This document shows positions 1,910 to 56,262 of a stretch of DNA of 64,000 nucleotides, in pieces. A program made the translations under genes and the position numbers. The stretch lies in the NCBI RefSeq assembly GCF_003704095.1, contig NW_020847638.1, forward strand, positions 1 to 64,000. Reading direction: 5' to 3'. Source of the DNA: Pocillopora damicornis (lineage: Eukaryota). The notes below the pieces were generated by a model. The model made no database searches. It saw only the letters and a list, made by a program, of their open reading frames with translations, and was not told the origin of the DNA. Each line of letters begins with the position of its first letter. Positions within the stretch are counted from its first letter, which is position 1.

Positions 1910-4900
1910 TGGATCTACAAGAATGACCTGTCTACAGGACCAGAAAGAGTTTCTCCCAAATGAGGTAGGACTTGAGGTATAATGGCAAAACCAGAATTCC
2001 TTCAAAGGTTACCTTCTCTGCCTTGCCCATGGGCTCATGTTTACTAACATGGCTGTCATACTTGTTTTCAATTTTCTAATATTTACCAGATTTTGATGTC
2101 ACAAGTGGAAACTAATGACAGTTTCCTTGTTGTATTGGCAGGAAAAACTGCTGATAACAACTATTCCTGTATGTTGTAGAAAAAAGTTGCTGAATTTTAA
2201 GCTTGGGTATGAAATAAAGAAAGATCACTTTTGTCTTGCCATGAGCATGGGATAAAGGAAAATTTCTATGTCTTTGTGATGAATGGTACCTCAGACCTTC
2301 AGATACAGAGCTTTAATGTACTGCCACTATGCTGCAGTTACTCTATGATGAAGGTGAGACGGCTTAGTGCAGCATAATAGAGCATCATGGCTCAGAATTC
2401 GAAGGATTGGGGAACAATTCATTAAAGGGACTCAGAATATTTTCTTTTTCCAATGTCAGTGACTGACACCATGGAAACATCTTTCTTTATTTCTGTACAT
2501 CTGAACTACACAAAGAACTTTAACCCTTCCTCATCTTTTGAAAACTGAACAAATGAAAGTACACACACTACAATTCCATGACACAAGGTAGAGGAGATTT
2601 TGATCACCTTACTTAAAAAACATCACTGGAAATTGTTTGATGTGTCATTTAATTTGTTTAACTCGACTTCCTCTATAATTTTACTCTCACTTATCCTTAA
2701 ACATTTTCTCATAATATTTGTAAAGGTATTTCCTGATAACTTCATGAGACGTGAAGTACAAGCCTTTGTTGTCAATTGTACTTTTGAGGATGAAGGATGC
2801 AATTGGAAAGGAGAAGTCAGACACCTAGAGGTATAGTAAATGTTTAATTGGATTAATTGTTATGCACCTGAACCTACATTCCAAAAATTTCAACAGAACA
2901 TCATGGGGAAAGAAGTTTTGGTCCTAGGAAACAGTATTTGAATCATGCCATCAAAATACTATGACTTAATACAACAGTTCCAGTGACAAGACCCTGAAAT
3001 GATACACTACTGTAGACAGTGTACATTCTGGGACTATGCCATAAAACTCATACTCTGTTTACAGACCATGCTTTGACTGCAATGTTAGAAATGTTAGCTT
3101 CAGTGATCATTTTGAATTTAGAGGGAGAAAGTAACACTTTCACCTTAACTCATTTTAAAAAAGAAGAAATGCACAGCAACCATTATCACACTGATATGAA
3201 CTAATCTACAATCATTAATAATGCTCTAACAATCAGTGAAGAAAAAGAACTACTTATTGAGGGCAAGATCTGCTATGAGTTCGAGGCATTCTTCCTGCTT
3301 GGAGTGTTGTATTAAGCTTTTCCAAGGGATACTATTTCAAGGTGATGAATGTCAAGAAGCTCATATAAGAGGTAAAAAACCTTTGATTGAGGGTTGGTCG
3401 TACTGGGCAGTCATTTTGATCATTTTGAATCCAGAGAGTGTGGCTGAAGAACACTGAGAAGTTATTTTTGGTCACAGAAATCTGGTAAAACAGGGTTTAA
3501 AAGTTGTGCTGAAAGACTTATTGCACTATGGTCCTTCCTTATTGTATAACCTGCTTGTGAAAAACTGCATATATTGTGTTCGTGTTTTCTAATGCAGCCA
3601 ATTTGAAGGCCTCCTGCTTGAAGGAGAGACTGTATTAGTAAGCTAATCAATATTGTCTCCAAAACAGAACCACTTGAGTAACTGTGAGTTCCTTAAAATT
3701 CCCTGTGTACATCCTGAGTGTGGAGCACAAGTGAAAAAATCAGATCTTACCCAACACTTGGAAAAGGAATGTAAGTGCAGACTGGAAACCTGTGGATTCT
3801 GCAAGAAGCAAATCAAACTTAATAAGATGAAGGTATGTTTCAAAAACTAAGTATTTTGAAATTCTTGAGCTAATGTGAATTTGTATGTAACCCTGACCCT
3901 TTTCCCATTGCCAGCACTCACTTTGACATTAGAATTTCTAGTTTCAGTGGTATTATCCTCTTAGTTTGTGGAACCATTTGCAAAACATCCATTCAATTAA
4001 ACTCATCTTTTGTGTTAAAAATATCTTTGGCTAATGCAGAAAAAGCATTAATATTTTGATTGCTTAGACTGCTGAGACAGTTAAGAATTGCACAAAGTTT
4101 GTTTTTTGTCAGTTGCATCTACTGTACATAGTAAACTGACAAATGTTTTGTAGTTGATGTTCATTATACTTAACCTGGCATTCCTCAAGGCTTCAAAATT
4201 TAAAGTATAGTTAGCTATGAGGGATGTGACCAGAGGTTATGTGTATGTTTTGTATAACACTGTATGTGCCAAAGTAACTCCACCTTTCAAACTGTGTGGT
4301 TTTACAGCATCACCATGAGACAGATTGCCCAGCATATCCAGTTGTTTGTCAAAAATGCAACAAAGATGGAATTCCCAGAGCAAAGGTAAACTATAAAGAT
4401 ATGATTTGATTCAAATGTTTCTCTTGTTTTGAATTTTTCAATCAGACCATGCTTTATTGATGGTTTTGGGTTGGAAACAAAGGAATATGAAACACTACAT
4501 GTTACAGGGAAAACTGGTTTGAAAAATTTGAATTGAAACACTTCATATAAATTTTGGAGCCAGTATTGAAATCTTCCAATGAAAGTTGGTCAGTAGAGTG
4601 CATAGTACAATTTGGAATGTTGTTGGTATGTGCCATTGTGTGTATGGTCTGGTCACAGAAACATGTCGCCATTTTAGTAATTCTAAAGCACCTGATTTTG
4701 CTTTCAAGTCGTTTAGTTGCATGTATAAAATTGGACATAAATGTTATGGCAATACAAGCCAGTGTCTAATAGCTTTTGATGGTTGGAATTGGAGACAAGC
4801 TTGAAATTGAATAATTTAAAACAATTCTCCCTGAATGTAAATTCCAGGTAAAGTTGTCTGGGTATGATACCCAACTAGGGTTGTTGTGTTGTGTTCTAGC

Positions 4901-7209
4901 GAAAGATTTTGTGTTGTGTTGTGTTCTAGTGCCACCCCACGCCAAAGAGAATACATCGATAAAGTGACCCTGTGAAACTTCATTTTAATGGTGTATCCTC
5001 GAGATATCACAGCTTTCGTCGTGTAAAGTTGGTATCTTTTCTCTCTTTAAAGCATAACATTGTATCCTATCGTTTTGTACGTCAGCTTTTACAACATCAA
5101 GATCCAATAATGGGAGACTGTGATAGTGTACAGGGACCGTGCCCATTTTCACAGATTGGCTGCTCTGCGACTGAGGTACTTATTGACAGCCTTTTACTAA
5201 AATTATGTTAATATGGTATAGTTCCTCAATTAACCAATGCAGTCAGAATTCGATGAAAGGGGGAATACAGATACGTGTATTCGCGTCGAAGCACGTCATG
5301 TCTAGGAAACTCAATTAAGTCCCAGCCACACTGTTTTGATCGTGTTTCACTTCGGGGTCCCGTCCAGGTCCAGCGTGTGTTGAAAGGAGGCATCCGGTTC
5401 GATTTTAGTATCGCAGTACATACAACTATCAGTGGAACCTGCGTTAAGCTGTCACCCACTGGGAATGGCGGGTGCCCGCTGAATACAGGTGGACCGCCTA
5501 TACGGTTTTATGCTATGATTGACCACTTCATGTACAAAAACTTGCTCAAAAATTTCGGGAGATGAAGATGGATAAGATATACTTTAAAGCTTATTCTTAG
5601 TTTTATTTGAGCGGCTCCCCCTTAAGTGACCTTTCAGTGGTGATGGGAAGAAGACAATAGGAAAAGGCCGTTGGCACTCAGTACAGTGTTACTACGACCA
5701 CTTAATAGAAGTGACCACCTAAAAGAGGTGGAAATTACAGTGGGAAAGAATTTCGGGACTTTGACAACCGACCACTTAATACAGGGTAACCGGGTAATAC
5801 GGTGCCGCTTAATACAAGTTGGACTGTACCTCTAAACAGTTTTGATATTTGCTGCATATCGTATCGCAAGCATAAGGGAACCGCAAGGGAAGTTAAGGAA
5901 ACAGGCAACGCCGAGAAGCTGGGAACTCTTTTAATCTTAAAGTAAACCAAAGATACAGATGTATGCTTTCGTTCGGTCCGTAAAAGATCGATTTGATAGC
6001 AAAGAGACTTGGATAAGTTTGTGGGACTCTTCTTTTGTGTGGGTTTGATTAATCATGTGACTGCTGATGTACATGTACCAATTCCTAAATCGTATTGGCC
6101 TGTTGAGTGTACATTGAAATCTTTCTTAATGGCGCACTTCTCTTCCACAGGCCCTCACCCAAAAGCAGAGGAAAGAGCACCTGGAGAAACATAATACATT
6201 CCACACTACTCTGCTTTTACATTATGCTATACGAATGAGCAAAGAGATGGAAGCACTTTTAGTGGGTGACCCCAGAATTGTGTCTAGAAACCCACACATC
6301 CTCTCAAATTACGACAGTGTAATTGCAGATCTTCTCGCTCAAGTTCAAACTCAGGCGGGTGAAACGAGGAATTTACGCGAAAAATGCCGAGAGCACAGTG
6401 AGAGAATTACCGCCTTGGAGAGGAAAGTGGCTTCAGGAAATCTGTCGGGTTCCGCTACAACTGCCCAAATACCTGGCGAGTCGAACGGTGGTACACAAAA
6501 CCCAGAAGTTACACGAAGGATTACCAACATTGAAAACCGAACCGCTGACCACGAAGTTCTTCTGGTAGAGAACAATCGCACAATGGAGGAAGTTAGACGT
6601 GACGTGGGTAATATGAAAAGGCAACTTGACACCACCCAGGAGAGTACCAGAAGGCACGACAGAAGGATTGAATCTATAGAGCACACACTGGCACTCAGGA
6701 ACGTAACCCTGGCTGATTTGGAGGAGTATGTAAAACAGCAAGAGTTCTCAAGCTACGATGGCCAGCTGTTGTGGAAGATTCCTGATTATGCTCGCAAACG
6801 AAATGACGCAGTGACAGGCCAGCAAGTCTCTTTCTATAGCCCTTGTTTCTACACCAGTCGCTATGGCTACAAAATGTGCGCCCGCATTTACCTGAACGGG
6901 GACGGAATGGGAAAAGGAACGCACATCTCGATCTTCTTTGTGGTCATGCGCGGTCAGTATGACGCGCTGCTCCGTTGGCCATTCAGACAGAAAGTCACCT
7001 TCATGTTGCTGGACCAGGATAACGTGGAACACGTGATTGACGCCTTCAGACCCGATCCGAACAGCTCATCTTTCCAGAGGCCAAGAAGAGAAACAAACAT
7101 CGCCAGTGGGTGTCCAATGTTCTGCTCGCTTGCTGAGCTGAATAATCACGCATATGTCAGGGATGACGCCATGTTCCTGAAAATAATTGTGGATATTTCT
7201 GATCTGTGA
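1910..7209 (+). CDS. TRAF2/3-like: TNF receptor-associated factor, TRAF2/3/5 subgroup (RING end, TRAF zinc fingers, coiled coil, MATH/TRAF-C); first RING exon missing, probably in the gap
   Basis: In-frame GT-AG exons: <=1910-1964 ([10 protein letters not shown]), 2726-2830 ([11 protein letters not shown]...C...GCNWKG), 3668-3832, 4308-4385, 5086-5175, 6151-7209. The last exon carries the MATH signature YDGQLLWKI...[36 protein letters not shown]...WPFRQKVT...[13 protein letters not shown]...NIASGCP. Confidence 0.95.
2190..2495. repeat. Degenerate head-to-head pair of tRNA-derived SINE-like repeats in a TRAF intron
   Basis: 2190-2345 and 2360-2495 are roughly reverse complements (aaataaagaaagat...ggaaaatttct versus agaatatttttc...atctttctttatttc), with remnants of tRNA A/B-box-like sequence. 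Confidence 0.5.
5430..5828. mobile_element. Non-autonomous Tc1/mariner-pogo-like MITE remnant(s)
   Basis: cagtggaacc start, ggactg|ta end, repeated (g)accgcttaataca-type subterminal motifs, no ORF. Confidence 0.4.
6151..7209 (+). CDS. TRAF2/3-like: Terminal exon of the TRAF2/3-like gene (coiled coil + MATH domain)
   Basis: Acceptor tcttccacag ends at 6150; 28 codons precede the ORF-track ATG at 6235 in frame; stop TGA at 7207-7209. Confidence 0.95.
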   Translation, partial: ALTQKQRKEHLEKHNTFHTTLLLHYAIRMSKEMEALLVGDPRIVSRNPHILSNYDSVIADLLAQVQTQAGETRNLREKCREHSERITALERKVASGNLSGSATTAQIPGESNGGTQNPEVTRRITNIENRTADHEVLLVENNRTMEEVRRDVGNMKRQLDTTQESTRRHDRRIESIEHTLALRNVTLADLEEYVKQQEFSSYDGQLLWKIPDYARKRNDAVTGQQVSFYSPCFYTSRYGYKMCARIYLNGDGMGKGTHISIFFVVMRGQYDALLRWPFRQKVTFMLLDQDNVEHVIDAFRPDPNSSSFQRPRRETNIASGCPMFCSLAELNNHAYVRDDAMFLKIIVDISDL

Positions 7210-10200: not shown

Positions 10201-10841
10201 AGTGAACTACAGTATACTGTTGCTTAATACTTTATAACCGTGCATTGCTGATCTGCTCATGCGTTGTTGTGTCCACATGCGTCCCTTATTAAAAAATGCC
10301 AGATTGTTTCTGAAAGAAGTCTTTTAAATTTCCCATAAATAATTATGATAGACTACCATGGTGATTGTGTGATGGAACAATCACTGAACTCGGTGATACC
10401 AAATTTTGCTACTGGTCAATTATCTGTCGCAAGTCCTGTTTAATTTGGCAAATTATTGATCTGTTCGACCCTCCCGCAACTGTATTCACGATGCTCAACC
10501 TAGTCATATTCATCGAAGTTTATTGCAACGAGAAAGGACTTTAGATTTTCCAATCGAACATATTTCCTCGGGACAAAAAAAAAAAAAATTTAAAATTCTC
10601 ACTCGTTTTGTTGTAGGCCTCCTCTCCCCGCCCTTCGTAAGTTGAGTGGATGCTTTTTACTGTAAATGCATATCACATCCTACTAAGACATTCTAGAAAT
10701 TATCAAATTTAGGCAACCCGATGTTTTTTCGGAATTTATAATCGTTGTTTTTTAATTTTGGATCGTCAGCACATGTTCCATTTTGTCTTAAAAGCTTCAG
10801 AACACGCAGATTTGAATTTTTTTCCCTTTGAAAGTCTCTTA

Positions 10842-10852
10842 GGGGAATCCCC
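10842..10852 (+). promoter_or_regulatory. NF-kB (kB) site GGGGAATCCCC in the putative promoter of MATH-less TRAF-like gene 3
   Basis: Near-palindromic p50-type site inside ttaggggaatcccctaa, ~110 bp upstream of splice donor cag|gtacgt at 10962/10963. An identical site lies at the homologous position of gene 4. Confidence 0.75.
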
Positions 10853-12572
10853 TAATTATCTATTCGCCGCAAGGGACTACGGGAAACAAGAACCGCTGCA
10901 TCATAATATTCAAAGATAACAAAATTTTGTAGAGGTTTATACTGTAATTCACATCTAACCAGGTACGTAATTTCTTTTATGAAGCTTGATTTCCCAACTA
11001 TGCCTTTTGAAACCATTCTTTAAGGGTATTAAGTGTTCATCCTCAACTCTTGATCGAAAACGAAACTGTATCTAATGCAATTTTTTTTTTTGTGTGCTCT
11101 CAAAGACGAGAAATAAGTACTGTCGTTATTTTTTATTGACAAGTCTTTTATTAGAGACAGAAACATGCGTCGATTTTAGCGTCCGTAATGACATTTTCAG
11201 ACCCCAGCACCACTGAGAGTTTCTAAAAGAAAGTGAGAAACAAAACAAAACAAAAACGAAAGCTGATTTTTGTGGCGATACATAACGACGGGGACAAAAG
11301 GCGTGGCGGCCATTTTGGCTTTGCATAGTGTGCTTTTGGTTTTCAAATCTAAACAGGATCATATACTTGATACTTCAGCTTTCCTTAACCATTATAAATG
11401 TATTTTTTATTTCAAGAGATTCTATTACCTCCTGGAGTCTTTCTGTTCGTTAGTTAGGTACTTGAAAACGTTGTCGTTGTTTCAGGGAAGGCGAAATAAA
11501 TGATGCTTATCTAAGCATTTCTTTGTATCCAAAATGGCGTTGCGTCCTTTATAGTTACAGTTCAGTGCTTTGATCATTCGTGACCTAATCTGAAGTTTGT
11601 GTTTCCATGTATATATGCAGTTGATATTGATGTGAAATCGGTTCTGTGCTTGATAAGCCGTCAGTTTTGTAATTGTTTAACGAGATAAACATCGAGGAGA
11701 AATCTTACCAGCAATTAGCGGGTTGTAGATTAGAAGGCCATGACAACAGAATGGACTTGCGAAAACCCTAAAAACGATGATGTAAATCACTTGAATTATA
11801 TTTCTTAGTTATACATTACTTTCAAAAGTTTTATTCTTTGATCGATGTGACAGTTTCTTGGTATGATTAAACTTACTTAAGTAATACTGCTTAAACTGGA
11901 AAGTACCAGTATGTATATTGATAAGTAAGTTTAGTTTTATCTTGTAATAAAAGGTACTTTATGGATATTTTATGCACCAGGAATCGATAAAGAACTAAAT
12001 CTCGCTAGGAAAATAAAATAACGAAGTGATTCGATATTTTTGTACAACATGAGGATCTTGCAATTTAGTAAGATCCTGCTAGAATCTTAATCTTTCAGTT
12101 CATGTAATTGCAAACCTTTGAGCAATTAGTTATCTCCAGGCGATCATATTTATTTTTACCGTATCTGGCGTTATTAATGTGAAAGAAAGAGTACAAATTT
12201 ATTGAATCAATATTTGCAACCTTGATGTTTTTGGTAATATTAAATGACTTTGTTTAAACACTCTTGACCATCCTCCAGTTATTGTACTGAAAGTTGATAG
12301 TGTGTAATATGTTTTGATATTAGATGAAGGTTTTAAGTCTTAGTTAACCCTAGAATTTGTCTTGTGCTTGTGATACTATCATTTTAGTTACAGCTGGTCT
12401 TTCTGCTCTGGTTACTTCTCTGTGATAATTTTACCAAAGCCTCAAAATTCACACGCAATCAAGTTGCTCCAAATAATTTTACTGAAGGTGAATAAGTGTA
12501 ATAGCAACTTTGAGCAAACGTCCCTTCCCTTTTTATTTCAGGTTAACAGACAGAGTTATTTAATATTAAAAG

Positions 12573-15500
12573 ATGTCTGGATACAGAATTCCATTTTCTG
12601 CAAATATTGATGATAAGTTTAATTGTAAATCATGTGGTCATTTATTGAGAGATGCTGTACAAACACTTTGTGGCCACCTTTATTGTGAAAACTGCTTGCT
12701 GAAGATGTTAGAACATGAATGGTAAGTGTGTATTTATCAACATAAGCCAAATAAATTTCAAAAGCTTGGTTAGTGTCATAAGATTTTCTTCAAAACAGTT
12801 ATGTAATACTTAAAATGAAATTATGGGCAGGGATCACACCAAATACATACCTCTGCATTGCTGTTTTGCAACAAGTAATGAATGTTTAATTAAACCTTAT
12901 ATGTGGCTATGATTTTGAAGACATTACTACTGCTTTCAGGAATTTAATTAATCCACAATGCAGAATGACATCATCACTTTTTAACTGAACCAAATTCTAA
13001 AAGTGCATCAAACCTTAAGTAACTTGATCACACGACTTGCTTTTAGGTGTCAAAGTAATATATATGTTATTTATTGTGTGATACATTAATAAAATGCAAA
13101 CATTAATTTTTGTGAATAATGAATACTGTATTACTGTTAATAATTAATAATTTTTTAAAAATTAATTTGTCAACTTAAAGTTGTTAAAGAAAGAATAAAA
13201 GTAATGAAGTTCACACAGTGCAAAGGAAGTTACTTTCTAGAGGGTCTCTCGGGTACCCCAATCTGGCCATGCAACAAACTCAGTGTCCCAGGCCCTGAAT
13301 TTAAACTACTATTGGTATCCATTGGCTTTGCAGTTTATATTTTTCTTTATTCCAATTAGTGCTCAAACCATTTGCAACTGTGTATATATAAACATAATTT
13401 TGATTTAAGTTGTTGTTGTTAGTTGATTATATGTTCTAACAGATTTACTCCTGGCCTTTTCTTTAGGGTGTTAAAGGAAGTCAAATGTTTAGACCAGAAT
13501 TGTAGCAGTCAAATTGGAAATGGAGGGGTAAATGTTTTGTAATTCTTTTTTACTTAAGCATTATTTTAAACTTATATATTAATGCATTTTTCCTAGTTAA
13601 TAAGAGTACATACAATTTCATCTTCAGTTAGGAAAAATAACTATCATACAAATGTTGATGGACATCTAAATTCATTATCAAGTGACTTAAGAGATATGGA
13701 ATTTTATTTTTAATGGATTGAATGAAATGAGACAATAGGTAAAATTTTAAGATACGAGTTTTAGGCAGGCATGTTGTGGAAATGATGATGTGCATAATCA
13801 CTATAGCCTTTAGTGGGAAGAAGCATTTCTGATTACCAGTTCTGATATTTGAAATATAATGAAATAAACAAACTCCCTTAAAATTAAGTGTACAAGTAAG
13901 AGGGAGAATTCTGTGTAATAAAATTTGTGGACTGCATTATAAATTTAATTATATGCATGGGATTTTAGGTCCTCCTAAGATATCTATTGAAATTTTGTAG
14001 TCATATTTGTAAAAGTTTAAAAAATTTGTGTGCTGTAAGACTTGTGATTTGTAAGAATTATTTGGTGGTCAAGTTGAACTGGTCTCTGCAACAAAGTGAA
14101 GGAGTTAGTAGTTGGTCTGTCATGGCAAAAGTCCTAAAATATCTCAGGCAAGGTTTATCTCAAGAAATTAAAATATCATGTATCCTTGAACAAGTACCTG
14201 TGCTCTAATTGGTACCCTCCCCCAAATAAGTGCAAAATTCCCCTTGGCCATACTACCAAACAAATTTCCCTCTTCAATAAGTACCCCACTCCTCCCTCAA
14301 TTCTTTTAAGTAGCAGGGATACAAGGAAAACCTGTTTCTAATTAATTGCCACTTTTTTTACAACTTTTTGAGCTTCAACCATAGTGGAGTCAATTTCCAC
14401 TGCAGTTATTTTTTTCTCCATGTGCATGCAGAATTCCTCAATAAGCATTATCTTTTCTTTATTTTTTGTCAAATTGCTGTGCTAACTTAACAAGCACCCC
14501 TTTGATTAAGCACCTTCTTCCTATACAATGGCCTGAGTTTTCTTGCTCACTATAAGTTGCAGAGATTATTAATAGTGATTGAAACTTAAGTTCCAGATCT
14601 GTTCCCCTCAATTTTTTCATGCTCTTTTATTTTCCTCATCTGATTTCAAAATGCATTTTTACATTTATTGATGTGTAACCAATGTGCCTTAGTGACGTTA
14701 AAAAAAAATGACTTCCAGTTTGTTGTAAAAACAATTTTTGGTCACACATTTATTTCTAACCATGTTAAATTAAATGATACATACTAATTCATGTAATGAT
14801 CCTCATCTTAAGTAACTCAGGTGGAAATAGATGTATTTCTGACAGGATTCTTATGGGTTCAGTATGGTTAACAGTCCTTTACTAATTAAAGAAATCAAAG
14901 TCGGATCAAAGGAACAAAATATGTATGTATGTTGGTAATGTAATTACATATTAAGAGGTAACATAGGAACTAACATACATTGTGTGTATCTACAGAAGTG
15001 AGTTCATAATGTTGATAATGTAACCTAAATTAAAAAATTGTCCTCACAGGGATCACAATGAATACATAATTTCTTGTATTCCAAAATGTCTGCATACTTA
15101 AATTACAAGTGCCATCTCATTCTTTTAAGGGAGATTATGTTTGCTTGTGCAACTTCATTTGTTAATGTACTACTTGGTTGGTTCAGCTGGAAAATTGAGA
15201 ATATTATGCAAGTTCACATTTTTTTTTTTCTATGGACAGTATTTTCCTGACAATCACACGAGAAGAGAAATACTGCAAATGACTACACCATGCTTGAATA
15301 AAGATACTGGATGTGATTGGTTTGGTGAAGTCAGATCTGCGGAAGTAAGAGTAAAAAGATTACTTTTAATACCTTGTAGCTGTAAATGATAATTATAAAT
15401 CAAGTTGCTTGATATGTTCCCTGGTTGCACGTGTTTGACTTTTCTATTTCTTGAAGTCAAATAACATTATGGTTTAAAATGTAATAATTAATCACCAAAT

Positions 15501-18500
15501 TTGCATGTCTTGGGGGCCTATTAAAGAAAAGAAGGATAAATGAAAGTTTGATGGAAGATCTGAAGGAAAGGTGGGTGGGACTCATTGTATAATGGTATTT
15601 ACATCTATAACACATCAAATTGTGTTTATTTATTAAACATTTCACAGATAATGTATTTTCTTATAGTACACGCAGTTTGTTATCTTAAAGACATCACTTT
15701 TAGCCCCATGCTGGTTCTGGAAGTACCCTTGCGAAATGGCTTTTGGAATTGCTAGGAATTCCTAGGATTTTCCTATTTTCCAGTAAATTCGGACTGGGAA
15801 TTCCTAGGAATTCCTAGGAATTCCCAACCATAACAACTCTGGTTCTGAAAACCTAGAATTTCCTAGAAATTCCCAGAAATTCCCAGAAATTCCAAGTTTA
15901 TAGCCAACAGGACTTGGAATTCCTAGGAATTCCTAGGAATTCCAACTCAGAGAACCAATGACTTTCCCTGAAAAGCTGTAAATCTAAAAAATTCCTTGGA
16001 ATTTCTGGGAATTTCTGGGAATTTTTAGGAATGTTTAAGAATTATTGGGAATTTTAAGCAAAAATTTGAGGCTAATGATATAAAATAAATACTTTAAATT
16101 AAAAAAACCCAGCTAAAATTCAAGTATTCAATGAAATTTATTTAGAAGCTTAATTAAGGCTTACATGTAAAATATTTTTTATTCATTATTAACATCAATG
16201 TGTGGTAATATTAGGATGGAATTTGATTTTTCTTTTCTTGAAAACTTCATATGGATTAATCCTCAATTACAGCTATTCATATAAAATAGTTCTAATCAAT
16301 CATTAAATTTGGTTTGACACAAATTGTGAATAAAATCTGTTGATTCTTTTCCATAAAATACAATATCTTAAATTATATTTGAAAACCAAGCACTCTTAGG
16401 AGTGAAGGGGTTAATTACAGACAAATAAAATTTATCGTTTTATTAAAATCTTGTAGTAACTGTAACAATAAATTAGAATGAAGTTATCCTAAACTGCAAA
16501 CTTAGCTGCTGCTTGTATTTTTTTTCTGGGCTCACAATGAGTTGGCCTTGAAACAGGTTGTCTACAAGAAGCTTGACCATTTTGTATCTGGGTTCCATGA
16601 CATCTGAATTTGAAAAAAAATAAGATATTTAAATATATATATTTAAAGCTCAGACCAGGCCTTTAAGATGGCTATGAGGAAAAGGGCATTCATTGGATTC
16701 TCAAATTGAAAAATCTCTGTTATATTGAGTGACTTTTATATTGGAGTTAGTACATCTCTCTCATAGATTTTACTAAGTGACCGATTCGATTCTCAGAATT
16801 ATTCTAGTTTCAATTGCGCCGAGCGTTATGTAAGCTTAATTCAACCCGCTACATCTATTCTTTATAAGATTTTGATTACGCAACGAATATCGCAATTTTT
16901 TACTCACCACAAACTTTCAAAATCGTAGCTTTACAGATGGCCACTCGACCCTTGTTTGTACTAGTCAAGATGTCAACTGTTGTCCCTTCTTTTAACTCCA
17001 CGGCGCCAACGACTTTCTTTTCTTTTACAACACTCACGCTGTTCTCGTTTTCCCATTGAACCACAATAAAAGCTATCTTTAGAAATGTTATATTAAGCAA
17101 AACAGTTGAGAAAAACGATCAACCGATGAAAAGTACATTCAAAGATGAGCGCCAAATGGAGTCTTCTTTGTTTCTGATCACGGGCATGATCACGTGGATC
17201 TTTTAGGGACTTGTCATTGGCTAGCAAAGTGAATCCGCTGGCTTGCCGATTGCAGTGTTAAGAGAAGCGCACAACTTTATTTTGACTTCTCCGACCGGTT
17301 CTCTGTTTCTAGACGATGGATACCTTGGTGATATAAATAATGATGTGGGTTCACTCTATGTAGAAGTAATCGACAAGTATCGATCGTATTACAAATGCAC
17401 GATTTGTGGCCGAACGTTGTTGAGGAAAAAAAGACTCGAAACTCACTTGAGTTGTGTTCATGGCAAAGGTGAGAANNNNNNNNNNNNNNNNNNNNNNNNN
17501 NNNNNNNNNNNNNNNNNNNNNNNNNNNNNNNNNNNNNNNNNNNNNNNNNNNNNNNNNNNNNNNNNNNNNNNNNNNTTGGGAATTTTTGAGAATTACTAGG
17601 AATTCCTAGGAATTCCCAGAAAACTGGGAATTCAGTTTGTAAGGGTCTTTTGCATAATTGGGAATTTTTGAGAATTCCTGGGAATTCCCAGAAAACTGGA
17701 AATTCAGTTCGTAAGGGTAGTTCAGATTCAAGTCACTTGGGCTTGGAGGATCAGGCTGAATTAGGCCTGATCAGATTGGGTCACTTTATACTTTTAACTC
17801 TGTCAACTAAGACTGAGGCAACTCAGAGATCATTTGGGTCCTGAATTTATATATTTTTTTGCATGAAATTTATGTTACATTTAAATTTTGGTGTTATTTG
17901 ATCTGTTCATAGGACCATTACAAAGAGTGTGAGTGGAGGCCAGTGACATGTGTTAATTCTGGCTGCAATAAAGACGTACCACTTAATACATCAGCCAAGC
18001 ACCAAGAGGAGGAATGTCCTTTTAGAGATGTGGTTTGCAACTTCTGCAATAAGGCAATAAAGTGGGCTGATCAAGCAGTAAGTATATACTGGAAGCTTCA
18101 TTTAGAATCAAGTAATTAGTAAGTCAGAGCCAATGATAAAATTTAAATATATTCAAGAAACCTACTTGTTTGGGGAACCTTTACTCATGATGATGCCCAG
18201 AGGCAACAACATGTTATTTAGCCTCTGCATCAATTAAGACTGAAAGGGCCTTCATTGTTTTATAATGCAGATCTAGTCCAAAAGAGTATAACCTAAGAGA
18301 AACGTACTAGAGGAAAATAGAACATAATTTATACATCCAATAGGATACTTAGTAAACTTATTGACTGGCTTCCATAACATGTAGCTTTCACTGTCATTGA
18401 GTCATTGTATTTTTTATACTATTAACATTCATTACGTTATAGAACCATAGTGAAAGCTGTGAAAATCTACATGTTACTTGTGGAAATTGTGGGAAAGAGA

Positions 18501-21500
18501 ACATTCAACTGTGCGAGGTACAGACTTCAACCACATGAATGCAATTATTATATTAGTTGCATATTACTATTGCTATATTTTTTATGAGGGGGCGGGGGAG
18601 TTAATTATCACAATTTTCATTAACATCTATTCACCAAAGTGGAGGTGGGTATAAAAGGTGGATATTTACCTAACTGCGAAGCGGCAAGTAAATTATACAA
18701 TGCTTTCAATGAGATTTGAACCCAGGGGGGTGGGCAAAAATAACGCAACGAACTTCGACGAATTTCTTGGCTTTTGGAGGAAATTTCGCTGCGAAAGAAC
18801 TTTCCGCGAACGAAATTACGAACGATATTTCGCTGTGGACGCTAGTGAGTTGCGAACTCAAGAGGGAAAGTTCGCTCTTCTCGAAAGTTCGGTGCGAAAT
18901 TTCGAGAGAAAATTCACTCTACTTATTACAGCGAAGTGTAGTCTATGTATTGTTGTAATGCACTGCAGAAAAACTAGAAATCAGTCTGATCCACTCAAGT
19001 AACTATTCTATCGCTCCTTGCTGTTGAAACCTCAACGAATGTTTGATTGTTGATGTGATCCGAACAGCCAGGTGTTCGAGTCTAAATAGAAACGACCACG
19101 CAAACACTCCAGGCAAGTGGAACTTGAACTGGACGCCATTTGTTGTGATTAACCTTTTCATATAACGACACATGAAATTCCCAATTTTTAGGCGAGACTC
19201 CACGCGAGGAAGCATGACGTGCTGTTCGCAACCATGGCAACACATGGTATACCAATACTTCGATTCTCTCTCTCATTCATTGATCTCGTAGCACTCTGGT
19301 AGTTATTATGCCAAAAATATCAAGCTATACTAGAACTCGAATCGAGCTCCTGTATAGCCAGGGCTTCCATCCAGCTGGAATATTTAAAACCTTGAAAAGC
19401 GAAGGGTTACAAGTGAGCCTTTCAGGTATCACTCGCTTAATCAAGAAGCTGCGTCTTACTAGCTCCGTAGCAAATTTACCTCGCTCGAGGAGACCGAAAA
19501 AGCTGTCTATGGAAGCAAGAGCTTTCATAGACCAACAGATGCGTAGGAATGACGAGACGAAGAGCGCGAAGATTCGAAAGAAGCTGGCAAAACGAGGAAT
19601 TCTCGAAAGTTCGTCCACGGTGCGAAGATCGCGAAAGCAGCATAGCTGAACTCTCTTGCAAAGTAAGTTTTCGAATCTTCTTTCGCACTCTCTAAACTTC
19701 CCGCGTTAATGACGGGATTCAAATTTGTAAATGTAATCTGCGAAAACTAAAGGAACACTCAGATACCATATCTGCCAAAAACGTGTACTGTCCGTATAAG
19801 TCAAAAGCGATGCGGAAAATTTACTATTACAGCAGCATCTGATGGCATTGATCAGAACAGGCTTATGTTTTGTCTTTTCTGGTTTAAAACAAAACATAAA
19901 GTCTTTATTCTTGGTAAGTTAAGCGAGTATTTCTCATCGTTTGTATTCGTGACATAACTCCAGCCGAGGAACTGTCGTGTATTTCGTGAACGTTATATGA
20001 TGGAAAGATCGCGTAAATCGCATGGCGAACAGTTGAGTCTATACAGCGCGAAATTTCGACTAGTAGGCAGTAAGCCGACGCTTTTTATGGCGAAATTTCG
20101 CTAAACTTTCGTTTCGAAGCGAAAATTCGACGAAATGGCGCTCTTTGTTCAACGGAAAATTCACTCAAAAAGCCTCGAATTGTCATTCGAACTTTCGCAC
20201 GAAATTTAGTTCAAAGTTCGCGATAACAAAAAAGGAAATTCGCGCATTTCGCTTGCGTTACTTTTGCGCAAAACTGTACAAGGAAAGGACAGGGGAGGAG
20301 GCAAAGATGGCCTTCCGAATAAACGATTGCGAACTTGTAATGTTAATTTCCACTAGTAAGACCCCTGTGATGAAAATGTGAAAAAGTAAGAAAGAAAATA
20401 CGATTGCACTTCCTGGCTAGATGAAAACAAATTATAATTTCATCATGCAAGGTAGGAATCTTAGCAGGAGATTCTCAGCCGCTATTTAGTTTTTATTTAA
20501 AACTGTAAGAACTGTTAATGGGAGCAAACATGCTTTTTGCCTTTTGTGATAGCCGAAAAGAATAGTTAAGCACATTGGATGACTGATATTTTTCGTGGCA
20601 ACAATTACGAAGCCTTTAATTGTTACCTGTCTGCTCATTACAGTTGAAGAGGCATCAAGATGCAAAGGACGGTGATTGCACACAAAAGGAGTGTCCGTAC
20701 AGAGACTACGGATGTGAGCATTGTGTAAGTTTGATAGTAATCAAATTTAGGTAAAAGCGTTTCGAGATTGAGTATCAATTTTTGAAGTTATTCTAACCGC
20801 CAGTATAATGAGGACCATATCGGAAATCAACTTGAGTGCATTTGATCTCATGCCTCAGTAAAGCGCTGGAATAGTATGTCCCCTTCGCACTTGTTTACGG
20901 TTTTTCATGCTTAATGCTTTAGTAGCATCCCAAAGAATTCCGGCTGCAAATTCAGTTCTGCTAAGGAACATTTACCCATTGTTTACTTCAGCCGTTAGCA
21001 CTGCTCAAAGAAAACTTGCCCTCAACTCTCCTTATCTCTTCAGACGCCTCCATGTCATCCGCGTCACTGTGAAGCAGTGGTATAACTGAAAAATTGCCCC
21101 CTGAGACACTCATTTTAGGGCACAACTAAGCACTGCCAAACAAGAGACTTCACTTTTCAAGTCACCCACGCCTGAAAACGTAGTGTTTTAGAAGCCTTTT
21201 CTTGACATGTCTCCTTGCTAAAAGCTGGTTTGTCAGTTTTTGGACAAGGGGACTAGGCGATGTTTATCATGATGCAGTCTGTTAATTAATTTTAAAATTG
21301 TTCCAGGAGAAGATGGATCCCAAAGAGTTCAGGGCCCATTTGGATGCTGATGTGGTCCCACACTCATTGCTTGTGTTGCCACATCAGAGAGGTATGAATG
21401 ACCATCGCATGGAAGCCAACGCGGCTGAGTTAAGTGCTTTAAAAGAAACTCTCGCTGCAGATGAAAAGGTCATTGCAGAACATGAGTGGGCACTCCAAAG

Positions 21501-21564
21501 CCACTACCAAGAAATCCGTCTTCTGAAAGAAGATATGGAGAAATTGAAAAACTCTCGCGGGTAA
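12573..21564 (+). CDS. TRAF-derived gene 3: RING + TRAF zinc fingers + short coiled coil, no MATH domain (~297 aa)
   Basis: Exons 12573-12721 (MSGYR...CKSCGHLLRDAVQTLCGHLYCENC), 13467-13527, 15240-15344 (YFPDNHTRREI), 17913-18077, 18443-18517, 20644-20724, 21307-21564. All are GT-AG, total 894 nt, open frame. Exon sizes and phases mirror the TRAF gene. A putative non-coding exon 1 ends at 10962. Confidence 0.88.
15726..17717. mobile_element. EnSpm/CACTA-like (CMC) DNA transposon derivative in an intron of gene 3
   Basis: TA|CCCTTGCGAA...TTCGTAAGGG|TA short TIRs with a 2-bp TA duplication. Arrays of GGAATTCCTA-type decamers at both ends (15740-16060, 17576-17705). Divergent internal coding fragments: C2H2 finger CTICGRTLLRKKRLETHLSCVH on + (~17390-17468) and an exon on - (16908-17100). 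Gap at 17476-17575. Confidence 0.7.
18723..20276 (+). mobile_element. Tc1/mariner-like transposon, internally deleted
   Basis: Imperfect TIRs (cag...tgggcaaaaataacgcaa / ttgcgttacttttgcgcaaaactg|ta), cgaaatttcg-rich subterminal regions, and a truncated transposase ORF inside. Confidence 0.7.
19308..19649 (+). pseudogene. Truncated Tc1/Tc3-type transposase (N-terminal bipartite HTH DNA-binding region only)
   Basis: MPKIS...RIELLYSQG...VSLSGITRLIKK...PRSRRPKKLS (GRPR-like linker)...SSSTVRR; ends before any DDE domain. Confidence 0.75.
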
Positions 21565-24500
21565 GGGGACGGTTGCCCGCTGCATAGATAGTACATTGAT
21601 TAGCATATATACATTAATCACAGATAAGAATGGAATTTCTTTAGTAGTTAGGAATGTGAAATTGTACTGTTATGGAGTTATATGTGGTAGAAGATAATAT
21701 TCGAAATGTGGACTATTTTTTAGAGATGTGACAGTGATGCAGTTAAACGGTGATAAATTTAGCACTTAGTTTTATAATGAGTAGTTTTTACCATCATCAC
21801 TGTATGATACAAAATAGGTTACTAGAAATTAGTCTGGGTATTAGTCTGTGGTCGAGTTTTTAAAGGGTTTGCACAGTACACGTAGTTTTCGTTCACGTAG
21901 TTTTCGTACAAGTTTAGATAATTTTGACTGGTTTACTAAATCTCTTCTCGTTTTTGTCTATTTTTTGCAAATTTAGGGCAGCTTTTTCAACTTTAGACAG
22001 TTAAAAATGCTGTGGATCATCATTTTTTCATCGTCTAGAACTGAAGTAGATTTTTACTTGACTGTGTATATAGTTTCTTACCAGCGGCGCTTGAACGAGC
22101 GTTTAGAAGCAATTAAAGGGTAATTGGTCATTTCGCTTACGGATCGTTTGGCTAACGACGGTTGGCTGACGTCTTAGGTCATTCCGCCAACGTCCCAGGT
22201 AGTTTTGCTAACGTCTCACTGGTCGTTTCGCCAACGTTTCACAAAACCATTAGTAGTTCTATCGGCAGAACTTGATCGACTTCCTATCGAATCATAGGCA
22301 AAATGACAGTAAACCAATCAAACATGCGTTGACTCACATGGTTCTTCCACCCGCCATCCAGTCTACGTTAGACTTTACTCCATAAGTGGACAACTGTGAC
22401 AAGGCTTAATCCATAGCAAAAGAATATAGTATCTAAAATGGTAGCAGTTTTTAAAAGAAGTTAAAGCAGTGATATCATCTAGGGTTAGTTATCAGACATA
22501 TCAACTCTGCTATGGTCTCCCGCGTGAGCCTGCGAATACGTTCTTCAGCTTTGTCTTCGTTGTCCATTCCTAATTCAGTTTGTGTCAGACTTATATATAG
22601 GATTCCATAGTCGATTGTGGTTCAGTGTTTGGACCCAATTTTTTTAGTTTTACATGTCTCGCGATTTTTCTCCTTCCTATGTCATTGCTTTCACTTAGGG
22701 ATAAATTTCATGTGCTTGCCTCCTGAAGTAGCCAGACTACGAGCAGGAGCAAAAAAGAAGCGAATATTGAAAATTGTGGTTCACCGCGCGGAACTGTGGG
22801 AGTGAGTTGCGGCGCACTAACTACAAGTACTATTTTCTTTTTGCTGATTTCGTTCGGACTCGGGCGACAGACTTCGCCGAAAAGGAGGGACTGCTCGTAC
22901 CCTACAAAAAGTAATTTATTCTCGTATGCCTCTCAAAAAGGCTTTCTTCACTTTTAACCATATTTATGTGTTCTATCAAACCCGTGATATGTAATTAAGT
23001 CAGTTGATAGGAGTTGCGAAATTGGTTCCACACACTGTGCTAAAATCGACTGTCATGAGCACATAAATTTGCTATTCGTGTTTCTGTGTAATGCGAATAG
23101 TTTATTAATGATTCCATATCTGTTTTTCTTGTTGGGCCTTTGAGGTAAGTTTATTCTTTCACCCTGGTCGGACTTGATTTCGCATGCAAAAAGTTTGAAA
23201 TAAGCATATTGCAGCTTGAATGTGATATACTTATGGTTAAGTATCTGGATGAAAAAGACTGTTTGAGTAATATGGAAAATTGCACCATATGCCATACGGT
23301 GACAAGGTTAATTTAATGTTGTTTCATGTTATTTCAATGTGTTGTGTAACATATTTCTGATGTAGAATTTTCATTGGTCGAAGTAGTTGAAAGTCCATGC
23401 AGTTTGCAACGGATTGTTCTAACAAACGACGGCTCTTTAGCCACAGGTTAGTTGTTTATCATATAAAGATTTTTTGAAATGACATTAACCTTCATAATAA
23501 TAGGCCTGAAAGGATGGCACTTTTTCCTATAAAGACTTGATAATTTCATTCCATTCGAACAAAGTGGCTCGCACTTTTCATGAGGTAAACGTGAAACTGT
23601 GTCACGCCCTTGGGAACTATTTTTAGAACTTTGTAGGGGTTCCTCTGTCAGAGTACCATCCCCACTCAGGAATGTCTGTGGGTGCCAGCACATTGTAAGG
23701 GAAACTTTATCAATTGCTGGGAATTAACCTGCGTCGGACTAATATTCGATCCAGGGGATAAGCAACGTTCGTGGTCACTTTATTTTAGCAGAACCAAGTT
23801 AAGCACCCTTTGTGTAAGCCATTTGCAATTGGTCAATAACCCGAGAGTCTTCATGGAAAAAGAGTCACATAATGGCTCAGTATGTTACAGGTTTTCAAGT
23901 TATCATTTTGCTTGTCATTTCGGTTTGGTTTGCCTTTTAAACATATATAGCTCTGAAGGAGTAATTTTAAAAGTTTTTATTTTTTAATTTTTGATGTTCG
24001 TATGTTTTAGTGCTAGAAAGCAATATAATTATTTTGCTGTGACACTCAGGTAATGCTATAATTTCGTAAATGTTTAAATGAATAATAAGCACTTTTTAAA
24101 AGTAATTTCTAACAACTCAGGTGTTGTTGCTTAGGGTTTTTTACTCGAGGGTTTTTTACCCGTGATACGAATATTCTCTTAAAAATTCAGCCGACTGCTG
24201 GTTGTCAGTCACACGGCTGGTTTTCGTCAGTATCCATTATCACTTCAGATGGACGATGTTTTTTGCTCAGTTTAGTTATGGACCATTTGATTTTTGATGG
24301 ATGGATTGGCACTTCTCGCGAAGTTATTTTATTTCCTCTTTTTTTTTTCTTTCTTTGTTTCGTTTTCCATCTGAGGGCTCGGAGTCTTCTTTGACGATTT
24401 TCAAGTTATATACATTCATTTGATACGGCATGTTTATTTTGAGTTTATTTTTAAAGTTTATTCAGTTTTTTCTTTCTTTCCTCACCCATTCCTACCATTA

Positions 24501-24784
24501 TCAAGAGTTTAATGGTCCGTTACCTTATTCGAAAAGGCGCAAGTATACTCTAGCACAGTGCGTCATGTGTTTCTTTCGAGTATTTCATATCCGGAAAAAT
24601 TTTACTTGTTTGTCAGACAATTATGACAATGCCTGCTTTTCCTACCATTTGGCATTTTCTGTTAGTTTCCTCTCTGGTCACATAGGATCAGTCTTAAAAG
24701 CCATCATTAATGTCTTTTTCTTTTTTTCGTGTCTTTTTTTAAGTAGTTACATGTTATTTTCGAGAACAGCATAATTACCAACAT

Positions 24785-24950
24785 AATGACCAGCTCCCGG
24801 TTGGCATGTTAGCTCAGTTGGTAGAGCGCTGCACCGGTATCGCAAAGGTCATGGGTTCAAATCCCGTACGGGCCCGAATTTTTTTTTGAGGCCTTATTTC
24901 ACTACTGGTTAAGTAGTGTTCATAACTGCGAAGATCGCTTCCATATTCGT
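24785..24950 (+). repeat. tRNA-derived SINE-like repeat (tRNA-like head 24803-24875, nominal anticodon GGT)
   Basis: A box TAGCTCAGTTGG and B box GGTTCAAATCC, imperfect acceptor and anticodon stems, C at position 33, then a T tract and a non-tRNA tail. More likely a SINE or pseudo-tRNA than a functional tRNA. Confidence 0.75.
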
Positions 24951-25335
24951 AAATTAGCGTTAATTTGATTTTGTTAATTAGCCTACACAAAAAACATCGT
25001 TTTTTTTTCTTAAGGTTCAGTTAAAGAAGTTGAACTGTGTCATTATTTTGTTTTTTGCCTTGTATGAGAAATCCTACACTTTCAATGGGATTCTCTTCTT
25101 AATGTTGTCTAAAGTAAAGAAACAGCCTTATTATCATTTCCATTTGGGCAGTTAGGCAGTCATGCCAAATAGAGCGAGTGAGTTATTTAGTTAGTTTTAA
25201 TGTCTAGTCATTACTTAGTCATTAATTATTACATTAGTCATATATGTGACTCTAAAAGTTGGCTCAAAACAATTTGTTTTTTTCCTTTTGTGCTAATATA
25301 TTGACGGATCAATACTTAGTACTTTTGTTCTTGCT

Positions 25336-25548
25336 TTAACCTTTTAACTCCCAAGATCTCTTTTAGTAATTCTCCTTACTGTCTGCCATACAATTCTTAT
25401 GATGTCAATTTGGAGAATTTGGTATTGGATTAGCTTATAATTCTTGAGTTGATATTTTCCTTTATCCTCATCACTTCTATGCTTGACATTGTATTGATAT
25501 TGTAAGGAGAAATTCTCTCTTGGTCACTCATGAGAGGTAAAGGGTTAA
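25336..25548. mobile_element. TTAA-flanked MITE (piggyBac-like termini)
   Basis: ttaa|ccttttaactc...gaggtaaaggg|ttaa, ~205 bp, non-coding. Degenerate related ends appear near 16400 and 29290. Confidence 0.65.
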
Positions 25549-26429
25549 TTATTGATCATTCCAAAATTACAGTTGAGTCCTTTCTCTTGCACAGTATGTC
25601 ACCATGGCACTACAACCTTGATTTTTGCTTAATGTGCCAGAAATTCCTACTGTTAAAGTTTGATAACCTGCAGTCATGGTGTTAAGATTAATCTTTTCCC
25701 AAAGCTCTCAAAATATATTTTACAGCTTCAGAGCTTGGATTAATTAATGGTAGTAAATGTGCGCATTATTTTTATGGGAATAAAAGAATAAAGGTGACTG
25801 TGTCGATCGATCAGAAAATTAGTATAAAAAGAGAGGAGGAAATAACAAAACCCTTTTGAGCTACCTTAGGTAATATAATTTGCAAACAATTATGTAATAC
25901 AGATAAAGGTGATTAGTGGCTATTAAAAGTTTCGTTTGACTCAAGTGTTCTGTATTATTTGATAAGACTGGAATTTCGCTGTCAGTGGGGACCTTTACGT
26001 AACTGCACGTCACAAACCACTTTCTTTGCCTTGTATTCACTTTGATTGGGTTGGTCTTGAACAATGCGTTGCTCAAATTGTAACTGGGTGGTTAAGACTG
26101 GTTTTGCATCTCTGAGAAGAGGCAAAAAGTATCGAAATCTTTATTTAGCGATTTTACAAATGAATTAAATGGTTAGGTAATAAGTTATAAGTTGCATTCA
26201 AAACCAATTTGTGAGTGGATGGTTCCAACTGAACTATGCTAACATGTTACGTTCACAGAAAATCTTTGCCTCGTACTCTGTTGATCACACAGGTGCGCGG
26301 ATCTCCAATCCGCCACATCGAGAGAAGAGTATAATTCAGAAACTATGACCTATCTCCGCCCCTGTTTGGATGGTTTTGAAACTTTACCTCTCATAACGGT
26401 TTGCTCGGTGTAAATATTTTAATGGTCTT

Positions 26430-27080
26430 GTGTATTCAATATTGTTTGATGACACCGGGATTTTCAGAAAGATTGAGTGCCACGAGGCTGCCGTCATTAC
26501 TTTTTTGTTTACTTTGATTGCCTGAATTTTAATTTATAACTAAAAATGACACTGCTAGTGTTCAATAACATGGCATTTTTGAAAGTAGAAAAATTGGCTG
26601 AAATGTGGCTTTTGCATATAGCTGGCTAAGTTCGAATTCTAAGATTTTTTTAAAGAAATGTTGGGTCAGTCTCATCGGATGCGCTTTACTCAAATCTTTG
26701 ACCCTAGCTAACGACATCATGACTGTTTGCTGATGTGAAGTAGCAAGACGTGCTCTATTATTGTGGTTTACGGCTCATAAAAATTATCCAGTCGTAACGC
26801 GGGAAATGTCGTAAAAAAAAAGAGACATGCCTTCGTGTGTTGAATTGGTGAGCTTCATAAATATGTGGCAGCTTAGCACAGTTCACTTAGTGAACATTAA
26901 CAAATTGGAAGTTGCTTTATTTTTCCTTTACTACAAAAAAAAAATTACACTGAGCTTTCATCACCTTCAGGGTAAAAACACGAACCTCCATATTAGTTAG
27001 CAATTCAAATTTTTTCCTCACGATCATCTACAATATTTTCGCATGCGGTTCAAACTTAAAGTTTCCGGCTCAAAGTTGCC
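26430..27080 (+). repeat. Non-coding segment duplicated at ~35605-36250 (flank of the tandem duplication unit)
   Basis: Collinear shared blocks: ttgtttgatgacac, ccacgaggctgc.gtcatt.cttttttgt, gacactgct.gtgtt, aatctttgacc, catgact.tttgct. Confidence 0.8.
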
Positions 27081-27273
27081 ATGTACTAACGTTAGACCGC
27101 TTGTTGACGAGAACAATCCATGATTGCTTTAAAATGGCTTTCTTCAAAGTAAAACTGTCGAAATTCGAACAGAAATTGTCTCACAAAATGAAAACAACTT
27201 TGACGTTGAGAGACACGTGAAAAGACAACCTCGTTCCTGGCCTCTCTCGCTTGATTGGCCAGGCCCACCTGAA

Positions 27274-27284
27274 GGGGAATCCCC
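27274..27284 (+). promoter_or_regulatory. NF-kB (kB) site GGGGAATCCCC in the putative promoter of MATH-less TRAF-like gene 4
   Basis: aggggaatcccctaatt, identical over 17 nt to the gene 3 site. It lies ~80 bp upstream of donor cag|gtatgt at 27366/27367, with a reverse CCAAT (gattgg) ~20 bp upstream. Confidence 0.75.
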
Positions 27285-28062
27285 TAATTCGAGTTTAGAG
27301 TATGATTAATCACGAGACACGATCTTGTTGGTAGACGTTTTGGCCTCTGTAGGCGGATGTTTACAGGTATGTCTATTTTCAAGTTTATCTCATGATAAGC
27401 CCATTTAGACGTCTTTTAAAATATCAAGTGTTCATTCCTATTTTATGCTCGAAATAGGGTCGAAAAGAAGCCAACATTCGATGCAACATTGCATCGCATT
27501 GTGTTCGCATAGAACGTTAAGTGTTCAATGTAGATCTTTCCAGTTCGCAGTGAAGCGTGTATTTTAAATGAGTTTGCCCGCCGATAAAGAGGTGATAGTC
27601 GCTAAGTGTTTTCAAGTATGCGAGAACCTGTCGCTGTAATGATCTACTCTTCCATTAGACGGCATTTAAAGATGCCGACAAGCTGTGAAAATAATCCGTT
27701 GTTTCGGTAAACTGTTCATCTTGCGTAACGCACGATCGCCGGCCATGCAAGCTGAAATTGCCTTACAAGATGCTGAATGTTTTCAAAAAAATGCTAAAAA
27801 GTTCTAGATCAGAATAAGAGAACTGGTTCGTTAGTTTTCATTCTAACCATTGTAAGTGAATATTTTCAATAACATCAAAGGATTCTTCAAACGTCGCATG
27901 GTTTGTTCTGTTAATTGTTTTTTCTACGCATGAGCTGAAAAAGTGCCTATCGAAGCATATTCATTTTTTACTTCTGAAATGGCCTCTGAAGTCTTATGAA
28001 GAGCATTCCGCTGTTTATGTGAAGGACTTGAATCCCCGATTAGACTCGTGATTAATTTTGCT

Positions 28063-28113
28063 ACACTAATGGTGGATTTCATACTTTAACAGAATGAAAT
28101 CCACCATTAGTGT
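28063..28113. repeat. Perfect 20-bp inverted repeat with an 11-nt spacer
   Basis: acactaatggtggatttcat-actttaacaga-atgaaatccaccattagtgt. Confidence 0.9.
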
Positions 28114-34397: not shown

Positions 34398-35604
34398 CAG
34401 TATTATATTTCATTCATATTCACAACTAAGCGCGTCGAATGTGAAGATATATGCTTTGTCTTTTAATTGCATTGCTTTTCATATTTTTTTCAAAGAGCCC
34501 CTTTCCCCCACTTTTTTTCCCATATATGGCTTAAATTATGATCAGGGATTGCTCTGATTGATCAAAGTTTTGAATCGGGAAGATGTAACAACTTTTAAGG
34601 TTAGTTTTTGTTTTTGTGAGATGGACGAGAATGTTCAATGAATAAGAAGATCAGGACGAATTTCAGCGACGCCAAACCTGCGAAATGTATGCGAAATTGC
34701 TCATAAGAGGCGCAAAAAGTTTTGTTCATCATACAAACTGTGAACTGCAGGGTATTCACGGTCACAAACATGGATGCATGGTTATCATCAAATTAGAATT
34801 TTTAAAGATGCTACGATTATCACTTGAGAAAGGCGCAGTAAGAGTTTGCTGACGGGGTTTTGATCTTGAAATTTTGGTGTTGTCACGGGCAACCTTCCTC
34901 ATTTACAGAGGTAACCGAATTTCAAGAGCCGCGCGTCGCCAACCACCAAAGTGAAAGCCCGCCAAAAGAGCTCAAACGAATGGAAATGGAACTAGTTTCC
35001 CGCCTGTGAAAACAACACAGTTTGCTGATCTTCTGTCGCCTCTCACTCAATTAAGAATCGTATTATTTTGGTTTGTATTAAGGTTAGAGGGATTTTCATA
35101 CTTGTAACAAGTCGTAGTTATGACAACTTATGTTTAAGAGATGATATCTCTAAAATTAGGAAATGACCAGTCATGTTTCACTATTTAACAGCTTAACGCT
35201 ACCAGATATTTTGGAAGTACATTACAGAGGCTCATCGGTTTCCTGGATTGTTGGCATCTTTAGTTTAACGGATTAAAACTTTTTATTTGTTGCTTCAACA
35301 AAGTGGACTTGATGAGCACGTTGCTATAGCAACAAATAAGCTCAAGCTTCTTAAACCTTATGTGCCTGTAAACTTTGTAAACAAGTCCTATGACCCCCGA
35401 ATCGGCAAATTGCAATACCTAAGCATATTTACATTATTTTACTCAAGAAAACGAACAATAATAGGGTATTGCTGATAACATGAACGCAAATCAGTTGAGT
35501 TTAAAAAATTGCGAAACCGTTTTGAGCCTTAAATGATAACATCGCGAGAGATTATAAAGTATTAGTTATTGTTTTGCTGGGCATTAAATGTGTTATTAGT
35601 TTTG

Positions 35605-56195: not shown

Positions 56196-56262
56196 CAATG
56201 ATGACAATTATAATAATGATAATGATAATAATAGTAATGATAATAATAATGATAATAATAAA
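56196..56262. repeat. (AAT/GAT)n microsatellite
   Basis: aatgatgacaattataataatgataatgataataatagtaatgataataataatgataataata. Confidence 0.85.

Follow-up and report, generated by a model that had tools for sequence, protein, structure and literature searches.

Two tandem TRAF paralogs of Pocillopora damicornis, here called genes B and C, carry the same perfect 17-nt element, AGGGGAATCCCCTAATT, ahead of their first exons (10841-10857 and 27273-27289), and its 11-bp core, GGGGAATCCCC, is a predicted NF-kB site. We consider it likely that this core is a proximal binding site for a coral p52/p50-like NF-kB dimer, which would control both genes directly within a feedback regulon; with the core as an NF-kB binding site, B and C would be direct NF-kB targets. 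Direct NF-kB regulation had been suggested in a first-pass annotation made from the letters of the window (the whole 64,000-nt stretch of contig NW_020847638.1 that was analyzed). As a prediction it was strengthened by a genome-wide excess of the core, by pathway genes lying downstream of other copies, by a p52/p50-like RHD in the genome, by published EMSA and by RNA evidence for the first exon of gene B. The features of the window on which the analysis is based are listed in Table 1.

Table 1. Coordinates of the TRAF array and of the promoter elements of genes B and C (positions in the window).
Feature	Position	Strand	Basis or remark
Gene A, MATH-bearing TRAF of the same array	1910..7209	+	Best PDB match TRAF2
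17-nt identical run, copy 1 (core + 6 nt)	10841..10857	+	6 nt likely residual homology
kB core GGGGAATCCCC, gene B promoter	10842..10852	.	Sequence match, blastn
Non-coding exon 1, gene B	10913..10962	+	10913 is the inferred reach of the RNA contig
Exon 1 end and intron 1 start of gene B	10926..11059	+	Homologous to 27328-27454, 0/200 shuffles
Gene B coding exons	12542(ATG 12573)-12721, 13467-13527, 15240-15344, 17913-18077, 18443-18517, 20644-20724, 21307-21564(stop)	+	RNA junctions
E-box, upstream of gene C site	27214-27219	.	Not present in gene B
CCAAT box (ATTGG), upstream of gene C site	27254-27258	.	Not present in gene B
17-nt identical run, copy 2	27273..27289	+	Sequence match
kB core GGGGAATCCCC, gene C promoter	27274..27284	.	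Sequence match, blastn
Non-coding exon 1, gene C	27290..27366	+	Predicted, donor CAG/GTATGT
Gene C coding exons	28167(ATG 28184)-28332, 28730-28790, 29432-29536, 30645-30809, 31116-31197, 33372-33656(stop)	+	Predicted

The window holds a tandem TRAF array composed of genes A, B and C. Gene B encodes a protein of 297 aa with a RING, TRAF zinc fingers and a predicted coiled coil, without MATH, and every one of its coding junctions is RNA-supported. The junction joining 10962 to 12542 was present in X1 and X13 (two of the four runs), with short sides of 47 and 36 nt, and the unspliced X4 contig begins at 10935. We infer that the RNA contigs of gene B extend 5' as far as about 10913-10935, which is 60-80 nt past the core; the start of transcription cannot be read from contigs, and the location of the core 5' of exon 1 is RNA-backed in B and predicted in C. 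One run also contained a contig at 10265-10719 that is unspliced and lies upstream of the gene B site. RNA contigs were unspliced across the gene B stop in three of the four runs. An extra coding exon of B near 26293 was considered and rejected, the contigs being instead unspliced through the stop; none of the joints listed leads to it, and the RNA examined ends before 26293. Gene C encodes about 304 aa, also without MATH, and matches a 304-aa protein; one of its exons is likely missing in the assembly gap at 31016-31115. The 5' end and promoter of gene A coincide with an assembly gap.

Genes B and C share an N-terminal RING and TRAF-type zinc fingers with the canonical TRAF2/3/5/6 type, and their N-termini score best with TRAF6 constructs. 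Pfam revealed no MATH/TRAF-C in either protein, and the only MATH in the window and the 6 kb beyond it is that of gene A. The cluster members of 297-304 aa named 'TRAF6-like' in databases, from Pocillopora species and Stylophora, stop at or near the same position. Among the best 150 matches in 1.84 billion representatives, identity above 50% was confined to the Stylophora cluster and two fragments, the remainder being 25-40% identical and mostly longer; because of these matches the MATH-less TRAF type looks pocilloporid within the library searched. B and C are expressed RING-zinc-finger-coiled-coil TRAFs without MATH, a type also found in Stylophora. A weak tree of RING exons placed B and C in one group together with six further paralogs (92/92 unstarred), and on this tree of 49 columns the clustering of kB-bearing TRAFs was not significant (203 of 500 shuffles). 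The last pair of RING ligands, which has C-x-x-D/C spacing in TRAFs, differs in gene B (12573-13527), gene C (28184-28790) and the Stylophora relative, where it reads C-L-D-x-x-C; the ligase activity is uncertain.

Other features were observed in the array and around it. A further diverged TRAF-like piece lies at 428-1809; its last exon is 43% like the coiled coil of gene A, with no MATH match. At its end, where the assembly has a gap, 84 nt nearly duplicate gene A sequence, and some of the piece may therefore be misassembled. Intron 3 of gene B contains a multi-copy insertion (15739-17718) with GGAATTCCTA tandem arrays and one GGGAATTCCC at 17680, which showed very high RNA-contig depth from its many copies. 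In gene C, a 51-nt near-perfect palindrome occupies 28063-28113 of intron 1 and a kB-like GGGAATTTCCC is found at 32010-32020 in the last intron. ARAGORN identified a tRNA-Thr(GGT) at 24803-24875, possibly a tRNA-derived repeat, and several single-exon ORFs that by eye are rhodopsin-type GPCR-like were seen at about 40080-42800 and 53900-58550, the last two in tandem.

The first-pass annotation had described an identical 17-nt element at the two paralog promoters, set in promoter sequence that could not be aligned and followed after 80-110 bp by a splice donor and a homologous intron start, and all of this was borne out. The 17-mer was the sole blastn match between the B and C promoter regions and the longest word common to both, the next longest being 12-nt A-runs. 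When the whole window was searched with it, 0.14 matches were expected by chance at three mismatches and none of 100 shuffles attained the three matches obtained, the third match being the first palindrome read on the opposite strand. No alignment between B and C was found in the 300 nt upstream (p=0.17) or in the stretch from site to donor (p=0.185). Intron 1 did align over its first 150 nt, with a score of 44 vs 20.9±3.4 and 0/200 shuffles. The core lies 110 nt before the first donor in gene B (10962/10963, RNA-backed) and 82 nt before it in gene C (27366/27367, predicted), and fits the kB consensus as an 11-bp GGGG-A-W-T-CCCC palindrome. The non-coding 3' flanks of the two genes (26411-26731; 35585-35915) aligned at 70%, better than the promoters, and gave no further match among the fetched loci.

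The core GGGGAATCCCC was found 124 times in the genome, a count inflated by tandem paralogs, vs 27 for the reversed word. These 124 sites, with an AAT/ATT centre, were part of 223 GGGGWWWCCCC sites, the three other classes together accounting for 99 (about 33 each); the reversed pattern gave 138 sites over four classes. The excess of the core is about 3.7-fold, about three quarters of the sites lying above expectation and about a quarter being attributable to chance. The core is thus both more frequent than matched controls and kept between paralogs B and C, as expected under selection. The 17-mer had at least four copies in 234 Mb, with none for the reversed control; two further copies belong to the unrelated C2633 gene family, whose core sites (G000:C2633:80587, 123468, 156840 and 167658; L001, L002, L123 and L124) lie in a repeated region and include two with the full 17-mer. 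Pfam scans of 30 ORFs near these sites returned nothing but one DUF6570. With a looser pattern than the core, the DNA upstream of 25 other TRAF RING exons contained 20 kB-like sites in 94.8 kb, the control DNA 15 in 264.8 kb (p=1e-4), and 13 of the 25 genes had such sites; the 25 exons came from 29 matches after removal of one duplicate, one degenerate copy, one without upstream DNA and one likely non-TRAF. Four loci in metagenome contigs, considered as candidates for orthologous promoters, were at best 49% identical and uninformative; the single one checked was without a kB site.

The genes adjoining the core were analyzed in 73 loci, with up to 5 kb on each side, drawn mostly one per contig from 100 of the 124 sites and excluding C855, C2633 and the window; 47 loci (all 27 reversed and 20 centre-permuted) served as controls, and the six best-scoring ORFs of each locus were scanned with Pfam. 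The first 40 loci revealed A20, TLR, two TNFR, Death, NACHT-ankyrin, PARP14, apextrin, RdRP and Maf, and the 20 controls none of these. With the domain list fixed beforehand, the next 33 loci gave STING twice, TNF, DED and BIR (5/33 vs 1/27, p=0.15). Pooled, immune neighbours were found at 16/73 loci vs 1/47 with a broad list (p=0.0014) and at 11/73 vs 1/47 (p=0.018) with a tighter list chosen post hoc, by which 62 of the 73 core loci are without such an immune domain. Several core sites lie within 600 nt of a start codon, among them those 404 nt before the A20 ATG, 530 nt before TLR and 338 nt before the NACHT-ankyrin locus, and 5 of 44 are inside ORFs. The ankyrin gene at L188, which lies 2.2 kb away from a site, was not assignable to IkB and was left uncounted. 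Co-enrichment of CCAAT at core loci was not significant (41/73 vs 19/47, p=0.13), and a CCAAT partner box, which had been borderline among the first 40 loci and 20 controls (p=0.054), was rejected since the signal was gone in 73 vs 47; ISRE, CpG and GC did not differ in the first 40 vs 20.

Several of these loci showed features of their own. In the A20/TNFAIP3-like gene (L052:4995-5025) another kB-like word follows immediately after the perfect core. Each of three tandem Maf bZIP paralogs (L066:2230, 5006 and 9806) carries the core shortly before the ORF, and no alignment was found between the flanks of the two that were compared, a footprint pattern identical to that of B and C; a fourth Maf gene (L078:4995) also has the core. 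At two STING loci (L144:1252; L153:4995) the core is no more than about 140 nt away from the start of the ORF.

A single RHD locus was found in the genome, with an intact DNA-recognition loop, RFRYPCEGPSHGGLPG. Its best scores are with p52 (111 bits) and p50 (105 bits), ahead of c-Rel (77) and p65 (67), in agreement with the earlier suggestion of a p50-homodimer-type site and a p50/p100-like cnidarian NF-kB. About 2.9 kb upstream of the RHD exon there are two kB-like sites 150 nt apart (L126, G000:C998:727168 and 727322), which suggest autoregulation of coral NF-kB. Nematostella NF-kB shifts an EMSA probe that was taken from upstream of Nv-IkB and contains GGGGAATCCCC (PMC2751831), and the same word is the H-2 site, a positive control bound by human p50-containing dimers (PMC3218832). 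In the Nv TRAF3 promoter, three sites are bound by NF-kB in EMSA and are required if a reporter is to be activated (10.1101/2022.06.09.495518). On the other hand, knockdown of Nematostella NF-kB left most cGAMP-induced genes unaffected, including the antiviral ones examined (PMC8713801); a motif neighbour such as RdRP is therefore not necessarily a target.

The similarity of the two promoters could also be neutral left-over homology, an ancestral motif kept by chance and functionless in one or both genes, which we regard as improbable. The paralogs are unsaturated, with identity at 17 of 27 four-fold sites (63%) and 102 of 166 third positions over four exons; a 17-nt run is therefore expected 0.09 times in 500 bp, or 0.35 times if identity is taken as 70%, and its length alone is weak evidence. 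The 70% alignment of the 3' flank and the still alignable intron 1 likewise agree with residual homology. Against this, the kept run is centred on a perfect kB core, which drift would preserve with P of about 0.007 at the four-fold identity and 0.02 at 70%, the DNA on either side of the run is not alignable, and the core is in genome-wide excess. The further 6-nt extension has P of about 0.22 by drift. The conserved footprint claimed for all 17 nt thus holds for the 11-bp core, the six outer bases being without sign of selection; these extra bases fit residual homology, and the meaningful element is the core. A composite of the kB core and a TAATT word for a second factor has a very small probability. 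TAATT is a homeodomain core, and the identical 17-mer is found twice in the unrelated C2633 family with a reversed control of 0. The other two sites of that family, however, have TGATT beside the core (2/4), none of the 73 other loci has TAATT there, and the C2633 inter-copy homology lies on the other side of the site than in B/C, which suggests the opposite gene orientation. An element of 13 or 17 bp was likewise rejected on the A..T flanks of the core (29 of 124 sites vs 6 of 27 controls; p=0.05 with one site per locus).

If the site is functional, its main reader could be another kB-motif binder such as a HIVEP/Schnurri zinc-finger repressor, a reading that we give a lower probability still. 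HIVEP1 and Schnurri-2 are described as NF-kB-motif binders (PMC8602905, PMC3682135), but the neighbours of the core are NF-kB pathway genes and cnidarian NF-kB binds the same 11-mer (PMC2751831). That the 17-mer belongs to a mobile or high-copy repeat, the outcome by which the first-pass annotation would have considered itself refuted, is scarcely credible: nothing beyond the four genomic copies speaks for it, the flanks of 34 core sites match solely within paralog sets, and neither the B nor the C promoter matches any other fetched locus.

Under the preferred reading, that of a functional NF-kB core, an ancestral TRAF gene would have carried the core and tandem duplication would have copied it; purifying selection would then have preserved these 11 bp as the remainder of the promoter diverged by drift, with the outer 6 nt persisting as left-over homology. 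By analogy with Nematostella TRAF3, an immune or stress signal would lead NF-kB to bind and induce B and C together with A20, TNFR, TLR and STING genes, and the induced set might form a feedback loop on the TNFR/TLR pathway, whose sign could be activation or repression. A bolder version holds that B and C are NF-kB-induced, receptor-blind TRAFs evolved in pocilloporid corals, which would either enter the trimers of full-length TRAFs or compete with them. They would thereby act on TNFR/TLR signalling as a feedback brake, or a ubiquitin-ligase booster, that is specific to this lineage, and would belong to a regulon readable from one 11-mer (A20, TLR, TNFR, STING, IAP, Maf and NF-kB itself). This version is rather unlikely, and we put it forward as speculation.

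The NF-kB and TRAF genes of corals figure in discussions of bleaching and disease, and a 2026 review states that ChIP and knockdown are still needed to define coral NF-kB targets (PMC13042239). One exact word in such excess provides a candidate target list and two short promoters for a reporter. Since 'TRAF6-like' genes of Pocillopora and Stylophora can be without the receptor-binding domain, their induction may not point to increased TRAF6-type signalling. Nematostella TRAF3 is already a known case of a cnidarian TRAF gene under NF-kB control; what is new is that B and C are expressed TRAFs without MATH that keep the same predicted kB site. The literature, available in part, yielded no description of the B/C promoters or of MATH-less coral TRAFs, and the Nematostella supplements of predicted sites may list orthologs.

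The closest known system is the Nv TRAF3 promoter, which like those of B and C belongs to a cnidarian TRAF gene with kB sites near the start, as predicted for B and C (10.1101/2022.06.09.495518). There, function was shown by EMSA and a mutant luciferase reporter, whereas the B/C sites are known from sequence; Nv TRAF3 has three imperfect sites within 1 kb, and B and C each have one perfect palindrome at most about 110 nt from the first donor. Unlike Nv TRAF3, B and C are two paralogs that lost MATH, and they are likened to it as TRAF genes, with no orthology implied. The Nv-IkB probe site and the H-2 site contain the identical 11-mer in another gene and species and with other flanks (PMC2751831, PMC3218832). 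Predicted NF-kB sites were reported in heat-induced Exaiptasia genes, with TRAFs among the predicted targets (Cleves et al. 2020, as cited in PMC13042239); kB motifs are enriched in cnidarian stress and immune promoters there as here, although the coral signal derives from genome-wide counts of one exact word and that of Exaiptasia from heat-induced genes. In their proteins, B and C resemble TRAF2/3/5/6 in having the RING and TRAF zinc fingers, and their exon layout is common with the adjacent full TRAF, gene A. Mammalian TRAF1 is an NF-kB-induced, RING-less modulator. Ending after a short predicted coiled coil, without MATH, B and C are the mirror image of RING-less TRAF1.
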